Source: Burkholderiaceae bacterium | GTDB taxonomy: Bacteria > Pseudomonadota > Gammaproteobacteria > Burkholderiales > Burkholderiaceae_B | DNA: 64,000 bases | Direction: 5' to 3' | Assembly (NCBI GenBank): GCA_030158305.1 | Contig: JAOATE010000031.1 | Coordinates: 30,570 to 94,569, forward strand | In this document: piece by piece, positions 2,467 to 10,669 of the stretch | Position numbering within the stretch: the stretch's first letter is position 1 | Layout of the letters: each line of letters opens with the position of its first letter | Translations under genes and position numbers: made by a program | The notes under the pieces: generated by a model | Databases searched by the model: none | Told to the model about the DNA's origin: nothing | What the model saw: only the letters and a program-made list of their open reading frames with translations

Positions 2467-2483
2467 GTAGTCAACGGAGTCTA

Positions 2484-4034
2484 ATGAGTCAAAGCGTAGT
2501 GTGGTTTAAAAAGGACTTGCGCGTCCATGATCACGCTGCGTTGACTGCCGCCGTCAAACGCGGGCGCGTCTGTTGTCTGTACATCATCGAGCCAAGCCTC
2601 TGGCGCAGCCCGGATGCCTCGACGCAGCACTATGAGTTCACCATCGAAAGTCTGCGCGATCTCTATGTCGCGATTAAAAGACTTGGTGGACAGTTACACG
2701 TTGTAACCGGGGAGGCGCTTGACGTCTTGCAGAGGTTGCACGCACTCATGCCATTTGACGCTCTGTATTCGCATCAGGAAACCGGCAACGCACCGAGCTA
2801 TACGCGTGACATTGCCGTCGGCAACTGGTGCCGCCAACAAGGCATTCGCTGGCATGAGCCGATACAGTTTGGCGTCGTGCGACGACTGCACAATCGAAAC
2901 CTCTGGCAAGCCGCCTGGGAAGAGCACATGCAGCAAGACTGCCTGCCCGCCCCCGCCCGGATCGACGCGCTCCCCTTACCTTGGACTGAGCCACGGCCAC
3001 CGAGTGCGGCGCAACTTTGCATTGACCCACTGAATCCGCCTCGCCGTCAAAAAGGCGGACGTCAGATTGGTCTGGAAATTCTCAATGATTTTCTGGAGGT
3101 CCGTAGCGAACAATATCGTGGCGGAATATCCTCGCCCTTGTCGGCGCCTACGGCATGCTCGCGGATCTCGCCCTACTTTACCTATGGCTGCCTCAGCATG
3201 CGCGAAGTCGTGCATGCGATGGTGGAGGTCATGGACCGCGAGAGCTCCAGGGAGAGCCGCAAATCGAAAGGGTTACGCGCGCTCATGAGCCGTTTGTACT
3301 GGCACTGTCACTTTATTCAAAAGTTGGAGTCAGAACCTGAGCTTGAGTATCAAAACGTTCACCGCGGCTACGATGGTCTGCGGGAAGAAGACTGGAATGA
3401 GGCGAATTTCGCCGCGCTGAGCGAGGGACGCACAGGTTGGCCACTGGTGGACGCCTGCGTGCTGATGCTCAAAGACACGGGTTGGATTAATTTTCGGATG
3501 CGGGCGATGATTGTCTCGACCGCGGCGTACCCGCTCTGGCTGCACTGGCGAGGGGTGGGGCAATGGCTCGCAAGACATTTTCTCGACTACGAGCCTGGTA
3601 TCCACTGGAGCCAGATGCAAATGCAAGCGGGCACCACAGGCATTAATATTCCGCGCATCTACAATCCCATCAAACAGGCACGTGACCACGATCCAAATGG
3701 CGTCTTTGTCCGACGCTGGATTCCAGCGCTCAAAAAAGTCCCAGATACCTGGTTATTTGAACCCTGGCATTTGACACCTGAGATGCAACAACAGTTTGGC
3801 ATCCACGCCGACAATAGACTCCCTGTCCCTGTTGTGGATCTTGAAGCCGCTACACGCGAGTCTAAGCGTCGCCTGTACGATAGACGTAGTGATGCAGACG
3901 TCAAAGCAGGAAAAAAAGCAATTGTTGAAAAGCACGCCTCGCGCAGGCGTTCGAGTCAGCCCGCCAGCCGCAGACGGTTCAACAGTCCCACACAAACGCC
4001 ACCCCCGACACAGCACGCCTTGGATTTCTCATGA
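2484..4034 (+). CDS. Photolyase/cryptochrome family protein, divergent clade
   Basis: N-terminal [16 protein letters not shown]; FAD-domain motifs [51 protein letters not shown]. Confidence 0.92.
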
Positions 4035-4198
4035 CTACCCCCTCCCCCATGCGTGGCCGCAAAAAAGCTGACCTCCCCAGCAAAGTCTGTCAACGTTGCG
4101 CCCGTCCTTTTACTTGGAGAAAAAAATGGGAGCGTGACTGGGAAAACGTGAAATTTTGCTCCGACCGCTGTAGAACGTCTACGGGAGCATCTAAATGA
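4031..4198 (+). CDS. DUF2256-family small Cys4 protein (55 aa; alternative start 4049), absent from the ORF track
   Basis: Hand translation [55 protein letters not shown]. The CxxC-RPFxWRKKW-...-CSxxC pattern is the DUF2256 signature. ATGA overlaps with both neighbours. Confidence 0.88.
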
Positions 4199-5499
4199 GC
4201 ACCTTGATTTATTGGTTTCGAAACGATCTGAGATTGCAGGACTCTCCTGCGCTGAATCAAGCCTGTCGCGCGGCGACACACCTCGTTCCCGTTTTTGTAC
4301 TCGCGCCAGAGGATGCCACGACACGCTGGGGGTTTCCACGTGAGAGTGTGCCGCGCAAACGATATCTCACGCAGACCCTTGTCGAACTGGATGCACAATG
4401 TCGAGCACTCGGTACTCGACTGCTCGTGTTGCAAGGCGATGCGGTGACCACCCTCGCCTCACTGGTTCAATCCACGCAAGCCGACGGCATCATCTGTGAG
4501 CAAATTGCCGCCCCCGAAGAGCAAGCCGAAATCGAGCAGCTTAGAGAGCAAGGCATCAAGGTTCAATACCTGTGGCAATCCACCATGTTGGATTTGGCTA
4601 CGTTGCCTTTTACGCCTCGGCAAATGCCCGATGTGTTTACGCAGTTTAGGCAAAAGCTCGAATCTACAGGACTGCGCGCCCGGGCAGTCGCCGCACGACC
4701 TGAGCGCATGCCCTCTCTGCCCGAGAACCTTGCGGTTGAAAGCGTATGCTTGAAGCAGCGGCTTGAGCATCTGGGTTCGCGTTCAGAAGCAAACAACCGA
4801 TCAAGCGCAGGCACGACTCAAGGTCTGCAACACCTGGACCACTACTTCTCAGACGAACTGCCTCACACCTACAAGCAAACACGCAATCAGCTCTCTGGCA
4901 CAGACTACGCAACCAGCTTTTCAACTTGGTTAGCGACTGGAGCACTCTCGGCGCCAATGATTGTTGAGCGGCTTACGCAATACGAAACTGCCCGAGGTGC
5001 CAACGATGGCACTTATTGGATCTGGTTTGAACTCGCTTGGCGGGATTACTTTCGTTTTTTACATCTGAAATATGGACGTGCCCTTTACTTGCGTGAAGGT
5101 CTGCGCAAGCCTGACCCAGGCAGTGATGCGCCAAGCCTTGCTGAACCCTTGAGTGGCATCGCGCTCAAACTCTTTGAGCAATGGACTCAAGGCAGAACAA
5201 AAAATGCCCTCGTCAATGCGGGCATGAACGAACTCGCCGCGACAGGCAAGATGTCCAATCGCATGCGCCAGATCGTTGCAAGCTATTTGATTTATGACTT
5301 AAGAATCGATTGGCGAGCGGGTGCGGCTTGGTTTGAGTCACAACTCGTGGATTACGACGTTTATAGCAATCAGGGAAACTGGCTCTATATCGCGGGCTTG
5401 GGCACAGATCCGAGAGGCGGCCGACGGATGAATTTAGAAAAACAAGCGCTAGAGCATGACCCTAAGGGGCTCTATCGCAAACAATGGGCACAGACATGA
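4195..5499 (+). CDS. DASH-family cryptochrome (ssDNA CPD photolyase type)
   Basis: [72 protein letters not shown] are typical of Cry-DASH. Confidence 0.9.
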
Positions 5500-7025
5500 C
5501 AACGCTTCGCTTAGTACTGGGTGACCAACTGAACCCCGCACACAGTTGGTTTTCAAAAGTGGACCCAAACGTTGTTTACACCTTGATGGAGATGCGTCAA
5601 GAAACAGACTATGTGGTGCATCATGCCCAAAAGGTACTGGCGATTTTTGCGGGTCTGCGTGACCTCGCAGCACTGCTTGAGTCTCAAGGTCACCGTGTCC
5701 ACTACCTCGCCATTGATGATCCTACAAACACGCAGTCTCTCACGCTCAATCTTGAAAAGCTTATCCAGCAATACACTTGCTCGCGCTTTGAATATCAACA
5801 GCCTGATGAGTGGCGTCTGGATGCGCAACTTGAAACCTTGAGTCAAGGTTTAAAGATCGCGGTGGAGATGTGCGACAGTGAGCACTTTTACACGACGCGT
5901 CACGAGGCAGGAGAGATCTTTAAAGGTCAAAAAAGCTGGCTGATGGAACGCTTTTACCGTCAGATGCGGACAAAACACAAAGTTCTCATGCTCGATGCCA
6001 AGAAACCCGTCGAAGGGCAATGGAATTTTGATCATGAGAATCGCAAGCGCTGGACCGGCACCCCTCCAGAACCCAAAGATCAGCGCACCAAACACGATCA
6101 TTCTGCCTTGTGGAAGGTCATTGAAACATCAGGTGTCCGCACGATGGGAGCGCCACATGCAGCAGAATTTGCCTGGCCCTTGAACCGCAAGGAGGCTCTG
6201 GCGGATCTGGATCGTTTCATCGAACATATTTTGCCAAACTTTGGTGACTTTCAAGATGCGATGAGTACAGGACACTGGCGAATGTTTCACTCGCTACTCT
6301 CCTTTTCGCTCAACACCAAGATGCTCAACCCACAAGAAGTGGTGAGCCGCGCCGAACAAGCCTGGCATGCAGGCAAGGTGTCAATCGCGACGGCTGAGGG
6401 CTTTATCAGGCAAATACTAGGCTGGCGCGAATACATCCGTGGGATGTATTGGCACCATATGCCTGGCTATGAACAGCACAATACGTTTAACCACACCACG
6501 CCCTTGCCAGAGTGGTTTTGGACCGGCCAGACAAAGATGCGCTGTCTCTCAGACTCCATCGGTCAATCTTTAGAGCATGCTTACGGGCACCATATTCAGC
6601 GTCTGATGGTCATTGGCAACTTTTCTCTGCTGGCTGGATTAGATCCCGCTGCGTTGCATCGCTGGTACCTTGGAATCTATATTGATGCGTTTGAGTGGGT
6701 AGAGTTACCCAATGTCATTGGGATGAGTCAGTTTGCCGATGACGGGCTGCTGGCCACCAAACCCTATGTGTCGAGCGCAGCCTATGTCGATCGAATGAGC
6801 GACTATTGCAAAGGCTGTCATTACGATAAAAAGCTACGCGAAGGTGAGCGCGCATGCCCGTATAACGCTTTGTACTGGGACTTTTTTATCCGGCACGAAG
6901 AGAAACTCTCCAAGAATTTCAGGCTCGGAATGGTGTACAGAAATATTGAAAAAATGAGTGATGCCGCCGTCGAGGGCATCAAAGAAAAAGCTCAGGAAAT
7001 CAAAGCATCACTCAATACGTACTGA
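5496..7025 (+). CDS. FeS-BCP bacterial (6-4) photolyase / cryptochrome (PhrB/CryB type)
   Basis: [43 protein letters not shown], and four [4Fe-4S] cysteines ([18 protein letters not shown]). ATG 5496 overlaps the DASH stop (ATGA). Confidence 0.93.
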
Positions 7026-7311
7026 GGCGGTCAATCGCGCAGGCCATCATGATGTCGCGTGTCGACAGGCCATCCGCATCATGCGTGGTCAACACAATAG
7101 AGACCTTGTTGTAGACGTTGGACCACTCGGGGTGATGGTCCAATTTTTCTGCCAGGATCGCGACACGCGTCATAAAGGCAAACGCCTCGCTAAAGTCTTT
7201 GAAATGCCAACTACGGGACAAGCGCCCTCCCGCGGTCGAGTCATATTGCCAATCCGGGCAGGTTGCGCAGGCGGCATCGAGTTCACTGGACTGTAAGCGT
7301 GCAATGCTCAT
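7012..7311 (-). CDS. phhB: Pterin-4a-carbinolamine dehydratase
   Basis: [31 protein letters not shown]. Start moved to ATG 7311. Confidence 0.92.
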
Positions 7312-7324
7312 AATGGTCGACCTC

Positions 7325-8539
7325 TCAAGATGACTGTGTATTGGAAGGACCGGGCTCACGGGGCAACAGCATCACGACGATGGCCGTACACGCAGCAAAA
7401 CCCGCCATGACTAACAACATGACATCAAAACCGAGACTCTTGACCGATGGGCCAAGCGCCCAGACGGCAATTGAACTCAACCCGAGAGAGACGGCCAAGC
7501 GAATACCCGCCACGCGCGAACGCATCCGGTCGTCCACATAGCGCACCACCATCACATCCACGAAGGGTACCGCGCCGAAAATGAACACCATGACGCCCAA
7601 CAAAGCTGCGAACAACCACCAGCCTTGGGCGTGGGAAGCGAGCAAAAACAACGGGATTTGCAGCAACACAATGCCAAGAAAAATGGGGCGAATGGCAAAG
7701 CGGTCAAGCAACTTTCCGACAATCACTTGCATCAGCGACGCCACCACATAGATGACGGCCAACATGATGCCTAAGGTTGCGGGATCCTCCACAATGCCCT
7801 TAAAACGCTCGAGCAACAGCTGACCATTGCCATTGGTCGTAAAGTTAAACAGCACACTCCCGGTCGCAGCGCTCACCGTCATCACTGCCAACACCCGCGC
7901 AATCAAGGCAGGAGGGAATTTGACCTTGGCTGTTGTTTTACGCTTGGCGGGCGCCTCGGTTTCTGCTGGACACACATAAGCAAACCAGACGCCACAGGCA
8001 ATCGACAATACGGCTGGGATTGCAAAGGCAGCGCGCCATCCGAGCCACTTGATCAAAAAGCCACTGACCACGGCGGCAAGCGCCACACCCAAATTACCCG
8101 CCAAACCATTGATCCCAATCGCATAGCCTGGATTGACCGACTTTTGCACCAAAAAGGGAATGCCGACAGGATGATAAATAGAGGCGAAGGCACCCACCAA
8201 CGTCAGCGCTGCGGCGAGTTGCCAAGCGTTTTGGCTCAAAGCGGCAATCAGCGTGGAGGCACCTATACCGACAAAAAACACCACCATCATGCGACGGCGC
8301 CCCCAGAGATCACCCAGGCGACCCGAGGGAATCGAGCCTAAACCAAACAACACGAAAGCTCCCACACCATAGGGCATCAGATCTTCCCAGCTGTCAAAGC
8401 CAAAATCCATTGCAATCACGCCGACTGAGGCCGCAAAGATCAGCAAGAACATATGGTCTAAACCATGCCCGACATTGAGCAGCAATCGAACGGCCAACGA
8501 GTGGTCCTGAGTGTGCAAGGAGGCGTCAGTTGCGCTCAT
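7325..8539 (-). CDS. MFS transporter, substrate unknown
   Basis: About 12 hydrophobic segments; MFS motif [11 protein letters not shown] and second-repeat GKLLDRF; SIYHPVG. Confidence 0.9.
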
Positions 8540-8560
8540 CTTCTTTGGATTCCTGTGTGT

Positions 8561-8986
8561 TTATGCGCGACCAATAATAGATGCCGTCAACATGAGCTCC
8601 TCCAAGAGCGCAAGTGACACCGCACCAGAAACCGAATAGGGATCCAACTCGGGCTGCTCGGAGTACTTGAGTACGATTGAGGTGTTGAGTTTGGAAAGAT
8701 TGACCTTGCCCATTGTCCAGCCACCAAAACGTCTCTCAGTGATTTCTTCGTAGTGAAGCAACACAACGTCTTTGTGTCGTGTGTCACGAATGATGTGGCC
8801 ATACAACTCATTGACTTGCTTGCGCCCACCTTCGATCGCCTGAAGGTAAATTCCGCCGCCATAACAAAGAATGCCGGTAATTCCATTGGCGATATTGTGC
8901 TGACGCGAGGAATCTAAAATCGAATCCGTCTCCTCGTTCGCGCTTGGGTCTAGTGCACGACTGACATATAACAAACGTACCAACAT
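8561..8986 (-). CDS. Stand-alone BLUF blue-light sensor
   Basis: LLYVSRA (Tyr), NIANGITGIL, YLQAIEG (Gln), DTRH, RFGGWTM (Trp/Met). No output domain. Confidence 0.93.
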   Translation of the reverse strand: MLVRLLYVSRALDPSANEETDSILDSSRQHNIANGITGILCYGGGIYLQAIEGGRKQVNELYGHIIRDTRHKDVVLLHYEEITERRFGGWTMGKVNLSKLNTSIVLKYSEQPELDPYSVSGAVSLALLEELMLTASIIGRA

Positions 8987-8988
8987 GG

Positions 8989-9696
8989 TTATACCTCTCG
9001 AGGAATCAAGGACAGGAACTCACGACGCAAATTGGGGTCTTTTAGAAAGGCTCCCCGCATGACTGAGTTGATCATACGACTATCCATGTCCTTGACACCG
9101 CGCCAGGACATACAAAAGTGTGTCGCGCTCATGACGACAGCCAAACCATCGGGTTGGGTTTTTTCCTGAATCAAGTCTGCGAGCTGCACCACAGCTTCTT
9201 CTTGGATCTGCGGGCGGCTCATGATCCATTCCGCGAGGCGGACGTATTTGGAGAGACCGATCACGTTGGTATGCTCATTGGGCATGATCCCAATCCAAAC
9301 CTTACCGATCACGGGACAAAAGTGATGACTGCACGCGCTGCGGACGGTCATCGGTCCAACAATCATCAATTCGCTCAGATGCTCGACGTTAGGAAACTCT
9401 GTAATCGGGGGCTGGGGACGATAACGACCGCCAAACACCTCTTGAAGATACATTTTGGCAACGCGTCGCGCGGTGTCATTGGTGTTGTGATCGGAAACGG
9501 TGTCAATCACCAAGCTTTCCAACACGCCTTTCATTTTGCCCTCCACCTCATCCAACAGCAGAGCAAGCTCGCCGGGTTCGATAAAGTCGGAGATGTTGTC
9601 ATTGGCATGAAAACGCTTGCGTGCTGATTTCAGGCGATTGCGGATGGATACCGAAATGGGTACGCCTTTGTCTGGGTCTTGATCAGTAGGATTCAT
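8989..9696 (-). CDS. folE: GTP cyclohydrolase I
   Basis: TARRVAKMY, RSACSHHFCP, GLSKYVR, RPQIQE, HFCMSWRGV (Zn ligands C, H, C). Start moved to ATG 9696. Confidence 0.95.
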   Translation of the reverse strand: MNPTDQDPDKGVPISVSIRNRLKSARKRFHANDNISDFIEPGELALLLDEVEGKMKGVLESLVIDTVSDHNTNDTARRVAKMYLQEVFGGRYRPQPPITEFPNVEHLSELMIVGPMTVRSACSHHFCPVIGKVWIGIMPNEHTNVIGLSKYVRLAEWIMSRPQIQEEAVVQLADLIQEKTQPDGLAVVMSATHFCMSWRGVKDMDSRMINSVMRGAFLKDPNLRREFLSLIPREV

Positions 9697-9786
9697 AAGG
9701 TTGAGTTTAATCGTGGTGTGAGTATCTTGTGTTGGGGAAAAGAAGATCAAACTTAAGCATTAACGGAAGCACGACCTGGCTAAGCA

Positions 9787-10167
9787 CTACTTGATCCGAC
9801 GTTGTATCGCTGGACGAATCCGAAGAAACCCAACATAACATTTTTCTAAAAACCATATACCAGGAGGATGCGCAAACAACCGCCCGAACCAGCGCCAATA
9901 TTTCAGGCTCAACCAGAGCTCGACAAAAGCCGCAGCCCCACTTTTGAGGGTGCCATCGGCGCCTCGCACATGAAAGCGCGCCATCGCTTGCTGGCAACTC
10001 AAATCACCAGCGACTTGTCCGTCTGTCGCGCGACTGACATCCTGCCAACTAATCTGGTCCGCGCCTGCACTGTTTTTATAAAAACCAATTTCTCGCCGGC
10101 AAAGCGGACACGAACCATCGAAATACACAGTGATCTGATTATTTGCTTTCACAGAGGCTTTGTCCAT
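9787..10167 (-). CDS. DUF393 / DCC-family thiol-disulfide oxidoreductase
   Basis: VYFDGSCPLC (DxxCxxC), GAAAFVELW. Start moved to ATG 10167. Confidence 0.88.
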   Translation of the reverse strand: MDKASVKANNQITVYFDGSCPLCRREIGFYKNSAGADQISWQDVSRATDGQVAGDLSCQQAMARFHVRGADGTLKSGAAAFVELWLSLKYWRWFGRLFAHPPGIWFLEKCYVGFLRIRPAIQRRIK

Positions 10168-10180
10168 AAAGACCACACAC

Positions 10181-10669
10181 CTACAACCACTTCTGCATGA
10201 AGAGGGCCTGCCCCGTTTCTGGGCTGAGGGAATATTGCTCAAAGCCAAAACGTTGATAAGAGCGCTGCGCTTGGGTATTGCCGCTCAGCACCTCAAGCGT
10301 CACCTTGCAGCACCCTGAAGCGCGCGCATACCCCTCCATCGCTGTCAAAAGCGCCTGACCGACACCTTGACCGCGGTGGGCAGGGTCCACGGCAATGTCG
10401 TGCACATTGAGCAAAGGGCGTGCTTTAAAGGTCGAATATCCGGGCAAGGCATTTAACAACCCGACTGGCTGGCCGTCCTTGAACGCCAGCCAACTGATCG
10501 CTCCGGAAAACTTAGCGAGGTCGTCACACAAACGCAGTCGTGTGTCCGCAGGCAGGGGCTCACCGCCTCCCATTGGGTCTCTGGCATACATATCAAGCAT
10601 GGAAAGGAGAGCCTGGCGGTCACTTGGATCAAGATAATCCACGACTTTGACAACAATGCTGCACTGCAT
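10181..10669 (-). CDS. GNAT family N-acetyltransferase
   Basis: LNVHDIAV, HRGQGVGQALL (acetyl-CoA motif A), YQRFGF. ATG 10669 follows a GGAGAGG RBS; the long ORF-track extension is antisense to the CoA-transferase. Confidence 0.9.
   Translation of the reverse strand: MQCSIVVKVVDYLDPSDRQALLSMLDMYARDPMGGGEPLPADTRLRLCDDLAKFSGAISWLAFKDGQPVGLLNALPGYSTFKARPLLNVHDIAVDPAHRGQGVGQALLTAMEGYARASGCCKVTLEVLSGNTQAQRSYQRFGFEQYSLSPETGQALFMQKWL

Follow-up and report, generated by a model that had tools for sequence, protein, structure and literature searches.

In a stretch of 64,000 nucleotides from a Burkholderiaceae bacterium (contig JAOATE010000031.1, positions 30,570 to 94,569; referred to as the window), four consecutive genes bring together three photolyase/cryptochrome classes and a small zinc-ribbon protein of the DUF2256 family. 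We consider it likely that a freshwater Burkholderiales bacterium uses this locus as an operon for photoreactivation and light stress. The genes are chained by four-base overlaps, their order is conserved in relatives and all four are under strong purifying selection.

Gene classes and junctions of the probable operon

The locus consists of the following features:

2476..2486, + strand: Shine-Dalgarno GGAG (2476-2479) and ATG of gene 1 (sequence reading)
2484..4034, + strand: gene 1, NewCRY-type flavoprotein, 516 aa (ORF list, Pfam PF00875+PF03441)
4031..4198, + strand: gene 2, DUF2256 protein, 55 aa (PF10013)
4195..5499, + strand: gene 3, Cry-DASH, 434 aa (TIGR02765, PF00875+PF03441)
5496..7025, + strand: gene 4, FeS-BCP / CryPro prokaryotic (6-4) photolyase, 509 aa (PF04244)

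The initial annotation of this DNA had described the genes as chained by three ATGA stop/start overlaps, and direct reading confirmed all of them (4031-4034, 4195-4198 and 5496-5499), with each ATG sharing bases with the TGA stop before it. For gene 4, an alternative ATG is present at 5484 (513 aa); the start at 5496 corresponds to the first residue of PhrB from A. tumefaciens. The features by which an operon is recognized are present, namely a single strand, zero intergenic space and an order that is kept in relatives. A four-base overlap is the commonest junction type within operons and further ones occur in the window besides those of the photolyase genes, so that the overlaps are not remarkable by themselves. 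Gene 1 is preceded by GGAG four bases 5' of its ATG and gene 3 by GGGAG at 4183-4187, seven bases 5' of its ATG, and both would be translated from these ribosome-binding sites of their own. The sites of genes 2 and 4 are weak. As these two genes lack a good ribosome-binding site and their starts overlap the preceding stop, the arrangement fits termination-reinitiation, and their translation probably depends on ribosomes finishing the upstream gene. A tblastn search of the 64-kb window found no photolyase-family genes beyond these, and the earlier statement that a class I photolyase for cyclobutane pyrimidine dimers (CPDs) is absent holds for this window only.

Gene 1 has the two-domain architecture of photolyases (PF00875+PF03441) and remained under the cut-off of every NCBIfam class model: DASH (139 bits vs 317), class I (NF007955; 137 vs 506), 8-HDF type (131 vs 885), plant cryptochrome (121 vs 604) and class II (50 vs 550). 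Its best PDB match reached only E 2e-39, and the protein is roughly equidistant from all solved classes. Alignment to E. coli photolyase (locus L081; the literature numbering equals the translated position minus one) revealed the replacements E274 to R270, N341 to F337, M345 to A341, N378 to H374, W382 to M378 and W384 to M380. W277 and W359 are retained and W306 is not conserved. These replacements, including R270 and F337, are invariant in 18 homologues together with two motifs of 10 and 14 residues. Two assignments were rejected: a class I CPD photolyase, on the basis of the NF007955 score and the replacement of E274, N341, N378, W382 and W384, and a 'bifunctional' photolyase of the PhrSph98 type, as those are class II-like and gene 1 scores just 50 bits with the class II model. 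The initial annotation had listed gene 1 as a divergent photolyase within a UV-repair or light-sensing kit; because the CPD-contact residues are missing and the protein is of the NewCRY/VcCry2 type, it should not be placed among the repair enzymes without reservation.

The NewCRY class makes up 8% of the superfamily, is found in bacteria and haloarchaea, is devoid of E274 and N341 and has VcCry2 as its representative (Emmerich et al., 2020; PMC7736829). These authors held only signalling to be feasible for NewCRY proteins and reported that 95% of the NewCRY species also carry a class I or (6-4) photolyase. By its sequence, gene 1 fits this prokaryote-specific 'NewCRY' or 'DASH-like' class. The likeness to VcCry2 was drawn via the class definition and via a homologue from Salinivibrio (Vibrionaceae, L164), which is 38% identical to gene 1 over 512 residues and contains the WHCHF and EPGIH..QMQ motifs. 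NewCRY is here taken to be the same group as the 'DASH-like / prokaryote-specific' one of Xu et al. (2021; PMC8476157). The gene 1 family is very large (>8000 database clusters at E < 1e-10), and the nearest named clusters come from Zoogloea, Thauera, Undibacterium and Hydrogenophaga. An AlphaFold2 (AF2) model of gene 1 had a pLDDT below 50 across most of the flavin adenine dinucleotide (FAD) domain. A separate observation concerns the basic C-terminal tail of the NewCRY proteins (window 3900-4031, gene 1 residues ~470-516), which is conserved, with K477, H484, S486 and R487 in gene 1, a consensus of KHGSRKR (KHxSRKR) and a terminal Q-x-x-LDF in many members. Repair photolyases do not have this tail, which could be a DNA-binding or partner-binding extension.

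Gene 3 scored 425.5 bits with TIGR02765 (cut-off 317.05), covered model positions 3-429 of 431 and matched solved Cry-DASH structures in the PDB at E 1e-80 to 1e-84. In the alignment to E. coli photolyase, E274, W277, N341, N378 and W382 are retained (FELAW, SNRMR, SNQGNWLY), and the DASH-typical Tyr is found at the position of W384. Gene 3 is a bona fide Cry-DASH and is predicted from these residues to be a CPD photolyase for single-stranded DNA. A C-terminal truncation had been suspected, as the protein ends at about E. coli residue 419 and at position 149 of 203 of Pfam FAD_binding_7; this was rejected because the DASH model is covered to 429/431 and the relatives are equally long.

Gene 4 is a canonical FeS-BCP / CryPro (6-4) photolyase. 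It matched PF04244 (DPRP N-terminal domain) with 241 bits and, among solved structures, the (6-4) photolyase of V. cholerae (7ykn, E 9.5e-149) and PhrB (4dja, E 2e-132). Compared with 4dja, the four [4Fe-4S] cysteines (PhrB C350, C438, C441 and C454) are kept, as are H365-H366 with H366 as the catalytic His, the Trp/Tyr electron path W342, W390, Y391 and Y395, and E403 near flavin N5; enzymatic activity would be expected from this set. The protein also has DYVVHH at residues 38-43 (Y-V-V-H 'D loop'), and a Y-V-x-H loop marks the lumazine (DMRL)-binding subgroups (Chen et al., PMC9178010).

The claim of three different classes thus stood up to closer inspection: genes 1 and 3 share 22% identity, only gene 3 passes the DASH cut-off, and no two of the proteins turned out to be redundant members of one class, a possibility that the initial annotation had raised itself. 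Its lesion assignments, CPDs in single-stranded DNA for DASH and (6-4) photoproducts for FeS-BCP, are consistent with the conserved catalytic residues.

Conservation of the cluster and the association of DUF2256

A profile scan of species-representative genomes with gene 1 yielded 80 loci, mostly from Burkholderiales, for which the gene content was determined by tblastn with the window proteins. The full order NewCRY-DUF2256-DASH-FeS-BCP was found in L001, L009, L010, L012, L013, L017, L048, L057, L071 and L076 (the contig of L017 terminates inside the FeS-BCP gene) and, interrupted by insertions, in L002 and L028. Of these, L012 stems from the cultured Zoogloea dura G-4-1-14. The full order is also present in the metagenome loci L093, L104, L105, L128 and L091. 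NewCRY-DUF2256-FeS-BCP without DASH occurs in about nine of the profile loci and NewCRY-DASH alone in about twelve. Limnohabitans-like genomes have the arrangement PCD-DUF2256-NewCRY-FeS-BCP (PCD: pterin-4a-carbinolamine dehydratase), and on the megaplasmid of Ralstonia wenshanensis 56D2 FeS-BCP is followed by two genes and then by NewCRY-DUF2256-DASH. The operon is not unusual, being a tightly packed form of a modular cluster that is widespread. The initial annotation had stated that these classes are often dispersed; according to the synteny survey this does not apply to the present lineage, in which the cluster is common and modular. The four-gene order with ATGA overlaps is a form found in Burkholderiales and in some Gammaproteobacteria, and we found no description of it in the literature.

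All three four-base overlaps are kept in relatives with a gene 1 identity of 93% (L001), 71% (L170) and 61% (L076), and in L170 the entire neighbourhood is conserved along with them. In comparison with L001, dN/dS values of 0.037 (gene 1), 0.015 (gene 2), 0.093 (gene 3) and 0.045 (gene 4) indicate strong purifying selection, with DASH as the fastest-evolving of the four genes. A metagenome-assembled genome of the Alcaligenaceae with the same neighbourhood (L045, 10697-11059) contains a DASH remnant, comprising the first ~28% of the gene, in the 432-nt gap between DUF2256 and FeS-BCP. This remnant is a deletion scar, which marks DASH as the dispensable module.

The DUF2256 protein itself matched PF10013 with 73.7 bits (cut-off 25). 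It is a Cys4 protein (CxxC...CxxxC) with a net charge of about +10, and C20, C23, C43, C47, W29, W33 and W37 are invariant in 16 sequences. Pfam assigns DUF2256 to the TRASH clan, which also contains YacG (DUF329) and zf-FCS (PMC4047054), and the family shares with these zinc fingers the signature C-x2-C ... (F/Y)CS-x-x-C. In contrast, the fold matches are not significant: the AF2 model (pLDDT 76.7) gave 2w0t (FCS finger) and 4tma (YacG) as top Foldseek matches at E 0.45-0.9, and the WRKKW...W motif is specific to DUF2256. The protein probably assists the flavoproteins encoded next to it, as a small helper that binds DNA or enzyme. Annotation often overlooks DUF2256 genes; the one in L170 (11545-11712) is uncalled in the ENA contig, and in R. 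wenshanensis CP076412 (L168, 6001-6138) the DASH coding sequence is annotated too far upstream and covers it.

The co-occurrence of the genes was analyzed in the 47 NewCRY loci that have flanks of 3.5 kb or more on either side. DUF2256 tracks FeS-BCP, being present in 21 of the 23 loci with FeS-BCP vs 3 of the 24 without (Fisher p 3.7e-8, kinship ignored), and shows no association with DASH (p = 1); NewCRY-only and NewCRY-DASH loci are without DUF2256. In a metagenome sample centred on DUF2256, which is biased to sequences resembling the query, 13 of 30 fully flanked loci have a photolyase-family neighbour, and FeS-BCP is included in 11 of these 13. Plasmid-borne DUF2256 genes come after FeS-BCP in Acinetobacter and Rhizobium and after NewCRY in Salinivibrio, and are solitary in Burkholderia and Pantoea. 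In 34 of 48 junctions, a four-base overlap joins the stop of DUF2256 to the start of the photolyase-family gene that follows, irrespective of the class of that gene, compared with 8 of 54 junctions between NewCRY and the gene after it. From these junctions it would appear that translation of DUF2256 is, as a rule, coupled to that of the following photolyase-family gene, of whichever class.

YacG itself is a short zinc-ribbon protein whose mode of action is to bind a DNA enzyme, gyrase. Photolyases are textbook single-polypeptide enzymes. One tentative idea, which we regard as possible although rather more likely wrong than right, is that DUF2256 serves bacterial photolyases outside class I, and most of all the Fe-S (6-4) enzymes, as a small and dedicated zinc-ribbon partner. 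It would be made just ahead of them by termination-reinitiation, would bind the enzyme or the damaged DNA and would be needed for full repair in vivo. A literature search found no paper naming DUF2256 together with photolyase. Two plasmid loci may be mentioned here. On a Thioclava plasmid (L163, 4516-5312), DUF2256 is followed after 5 nt by a gene for an SOS-response-associated peptidase (SRAP), and this adjacency is a second, non-photolyase DNA-damage context for the family. On an Acinetobacter plasmid (L165, 4647-4901), a TIGR03643-family gene is convergent to FeS-BCP-DUF2256, and lipocalin, desaturase and FAD-oxidoreductase genes lie in the vicinity, a set typical of photo-oxidative stress clusters.

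Regulation and neighbouring genes

The stop codon of the upstream PrpD-like gene (2445-2447) is separated from gene 1 by 36 nt. The sole sigma-70-like match upstream of gene 1 is weak (TTGGCA-N18-GATGAT, 2437-2466, 9/12) and of background frequency. The palindrome CTATTTGGCAAATAG (2433-2447) was rejected as an operator, since it lies in the last codons and the stop of the PrpD-like gene and is not kept in L006, L040 and L045. A comparison of 78 loci by k-mers for a common upstream motif returned generic GC-rich words only. Terminator-like matches were found at background level only, and within the operon there is no intergenic room for terminators. The stretch was matched in DNA metagenomes from freshwater, aquatic, runoff, wastewater and groundwater samples, which agrees with the surface-water origin proposed in the initial annotation.

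In V. cholerae, blue light acts through MerR and ChrR to induce the operons that contain VcCry2, VcCry1, phr and VCA0809 (PMC5241685). As these homologues respond in this way, light induction by an unlinked regulator may be inferred for the operon in the window.

Downstream, the operon faces a convergent run of genes:

7012..10248, - strand: PCD, MFS transporter, short BLUF protein, FolE-like GTP cyclohydrolase I and DCC1-like thiol oxidoreductase (context, outside the operon)

With 144 bits, the FolE-like protein falls short of the NCBIfam cut-offs (162-202); its N terminus is extended by about 70 aa. The run from PCD to DCC1 also follows the operon in L170 and L045. PCD, BLUF, DCC or folE genes flank photolyase-family or DUF2256 genes in unrelated genera as well (L033, L035, L038, L071, L074, L079, L097, L169). 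The PCD gene (stop at 7012-7014, - strand) and the FeS-BCP gene (stop at 7023-7025) share 14 nt at their 3' ends without a terminator between them; in L170, a gap of 18 nt separates the pair instead.

Explanations of the locus and comparison with known systems

In the explanation that we favour, the four genes would most likely form one message, starting from a promoter located within the 3' end of the PrpD-like gene or immediately ahead of it, with co-transcription inferred from the layout. Gene 1 retains the photolyase fold and much of the FAD-domain sequence, with the CPD-contact residues and the proximal electron-transfer Trp replaced, and gene 2, as a strongly basic zinc ribbon of the Cys4 type, akin to YacG and the FCS fingers, would probably assist the adjoining flavoproteins. 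Gene 3 would repair cyclobutane dimers in single-stranded or unwound DNA and gene 4 would act as an Fe-S (6-4) photolyase. By analogy to V. cholerae, blue light or photo-oxidative stress would be the inducing signal.

Several observations weigh against this explanation. A convincing promoter for the operon was not found, the promoter-like matches being at background level, and family scans of the window proteins detected no regulator genes within ~20 kb. With a spacer of 36 nt, read-through from the unrelated upstream catabolic genes is also possible. Searches of sequencing runs for the stretch matched DNA metagenomes and no RNA run. About half of the DUF2256 genes in the metagenome sample have no photolyase-family neighbour, and the other neighbours are heterogeneous (M17 peptidase, CitMHS, GGDEF, NAD synthase). 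Finally, there is no support for a sensor role of gene 1, nor for a repair role. In V. cholerae, deletion of cry1, cry2 and phr left the light-regulated transcripts unchanged (PMC5241685), which argues against a global sensor role for NewCRY.

Three other explanations have to be weighed. Gene 1 could itself be a repair enzyme, either the CPD photolyase for double-stranded DNA that is missing from the window or one for another lesion such as the Dewar isomer. Its proposed rebuilt pocket would consist of His274, Cys275 and His276 beside the conserved Trp273, with His374 at the position of flavin N5. The new His residues that surround the substrate pocket are invariant, the gene is under strong purifying selection (dN/dS 0.037) and it stands consistently in one operon with two proven repair classes. 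A class I enzyme was not found in the 64-kb window, and both cryptochromes of V. cholerae are stated to repair CPDs in single-stranded DNA (Tardu et al., PMC5241685). The replacements at the CPD contacts and at the proximal electron-transfer Trp (E274R, N341F, W382M, W384M) argue against repair, however, as does the view that NewCRY proteins allow signalling only and that 95% of the species have a class I or (6-4) photolyase in addition (PMC7736829), and we regard this explanation as unlikely. That literature view would instead agree with gene 1 as a blue-light sensor, forming with DUF2256 a regulatory pair that controls the expression or activity of both downstream photolyases. Such a role could account for a protein that has lost the repair residues, yet has kept the fold, many residues of the FAD domain and the conserved C-terminal tail, and DUF2256 stands directly after or before NewCRY in many loci. 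We nevertheless consider it distinctly improbable. DUF2256 follows the presence of FeS-BCP and not that of NewCRY: it is missing from the NewCRY-only and NewCRY-DASH loci and is found beside FeS-BCP without NewCRY on the Acinetobacter and Rhizobium plasmids and in metagenome loci. Furthermore, the full blue-light transcript response was retained in the triple photolyase-family knockout of V. cholerae (PMC5241685), and the zinc ribbon has no recognisable DNA-reading domain apart from its charge.

The least probable explanation, which we hold to be very unlikely, is mere adjacency, with internal promoters, independent expression and overlaps without functional coupling. Four-base overlaps are common in compact bacterial genomes, many relatives have these genes 10-200 nt apart or split by inserted genes (L002, L028, L047), and the modules are gained and lost independently. 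On the other hand, all three overlaps are kept across 61-93% identity, the overlap at the DUF2256 stop recurs across lineages and partner classes (34/48) far more often than that between NewCRY and the next gene (8/54), genes 2 and 4 lack good ribosome-binding sites, and no intergenic space is left for terminators, matches to which are at background. A coupled photoreactivation operon remains our preferred explanation.

Related gene sets are known from other bacteria. The cluster of marine, proteorhodopsin-bearing Flavobacteriia (Kumagai et al., 2018; PMC5932025) resembles the present one in its adjoining photolyase-family paralogues with small accessory genes in bacteria of sunlit water, but belongs to another phylum and differs in gene set and order. 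Two-gene operons have been reported as well, namely SPL with FeS-BCP (Xu et al., 2021; PMC8476157) and the UV-B-inducible photolyase operon of Synechococcus sp. PCC 7335, for which co-transcription and induction were determined by reverse-transcription quantitative PCR (RT-qPCR) (Fernandez et al., 2022; PMC9649867). Like these, our locus would place photolyase-family genes of different classes in one transcription unit; in contrast to them, it has three classes and a zinc ribbon, and neither SPL nor a class II-like enzyme. The same three classes occur within one organism in V. cholerae, as VcCry2 (VC1392), VcCry1 (VC1814) and the FeS-BCP Vc(6-4) (VCA0809), and gene 4 is most similar to the solved (6-4) photolyase of this species (7ykn). 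There, however, the genes are at separate loci, whereas here they form one operon.

Taken together, the operon unites three photolyase/cryptochrome classes with DUF2256 in a clean and compact natural setting. To our knowledge, the NewCRY/VcCry2 class has no assigned activity and no solved structure, and the operon would be a handy test bed for the roles of both NewCRY and DUF2256, a small protein that is very common. The comparative data narrow the question for DUF2256, as it tracks the Fe-S (6-4) photolyase and not NewCRY or DASH. If it were indeed a partner of these enzymes, photolyases would gain a helper subunit. Otherwise, the locus is one of the ordinary adaptations of freshwater bacteria to sunlight and illustrates well a type of cluster that is already known, in which the functions of NewCRY and DUF2256 are the points of real interest.

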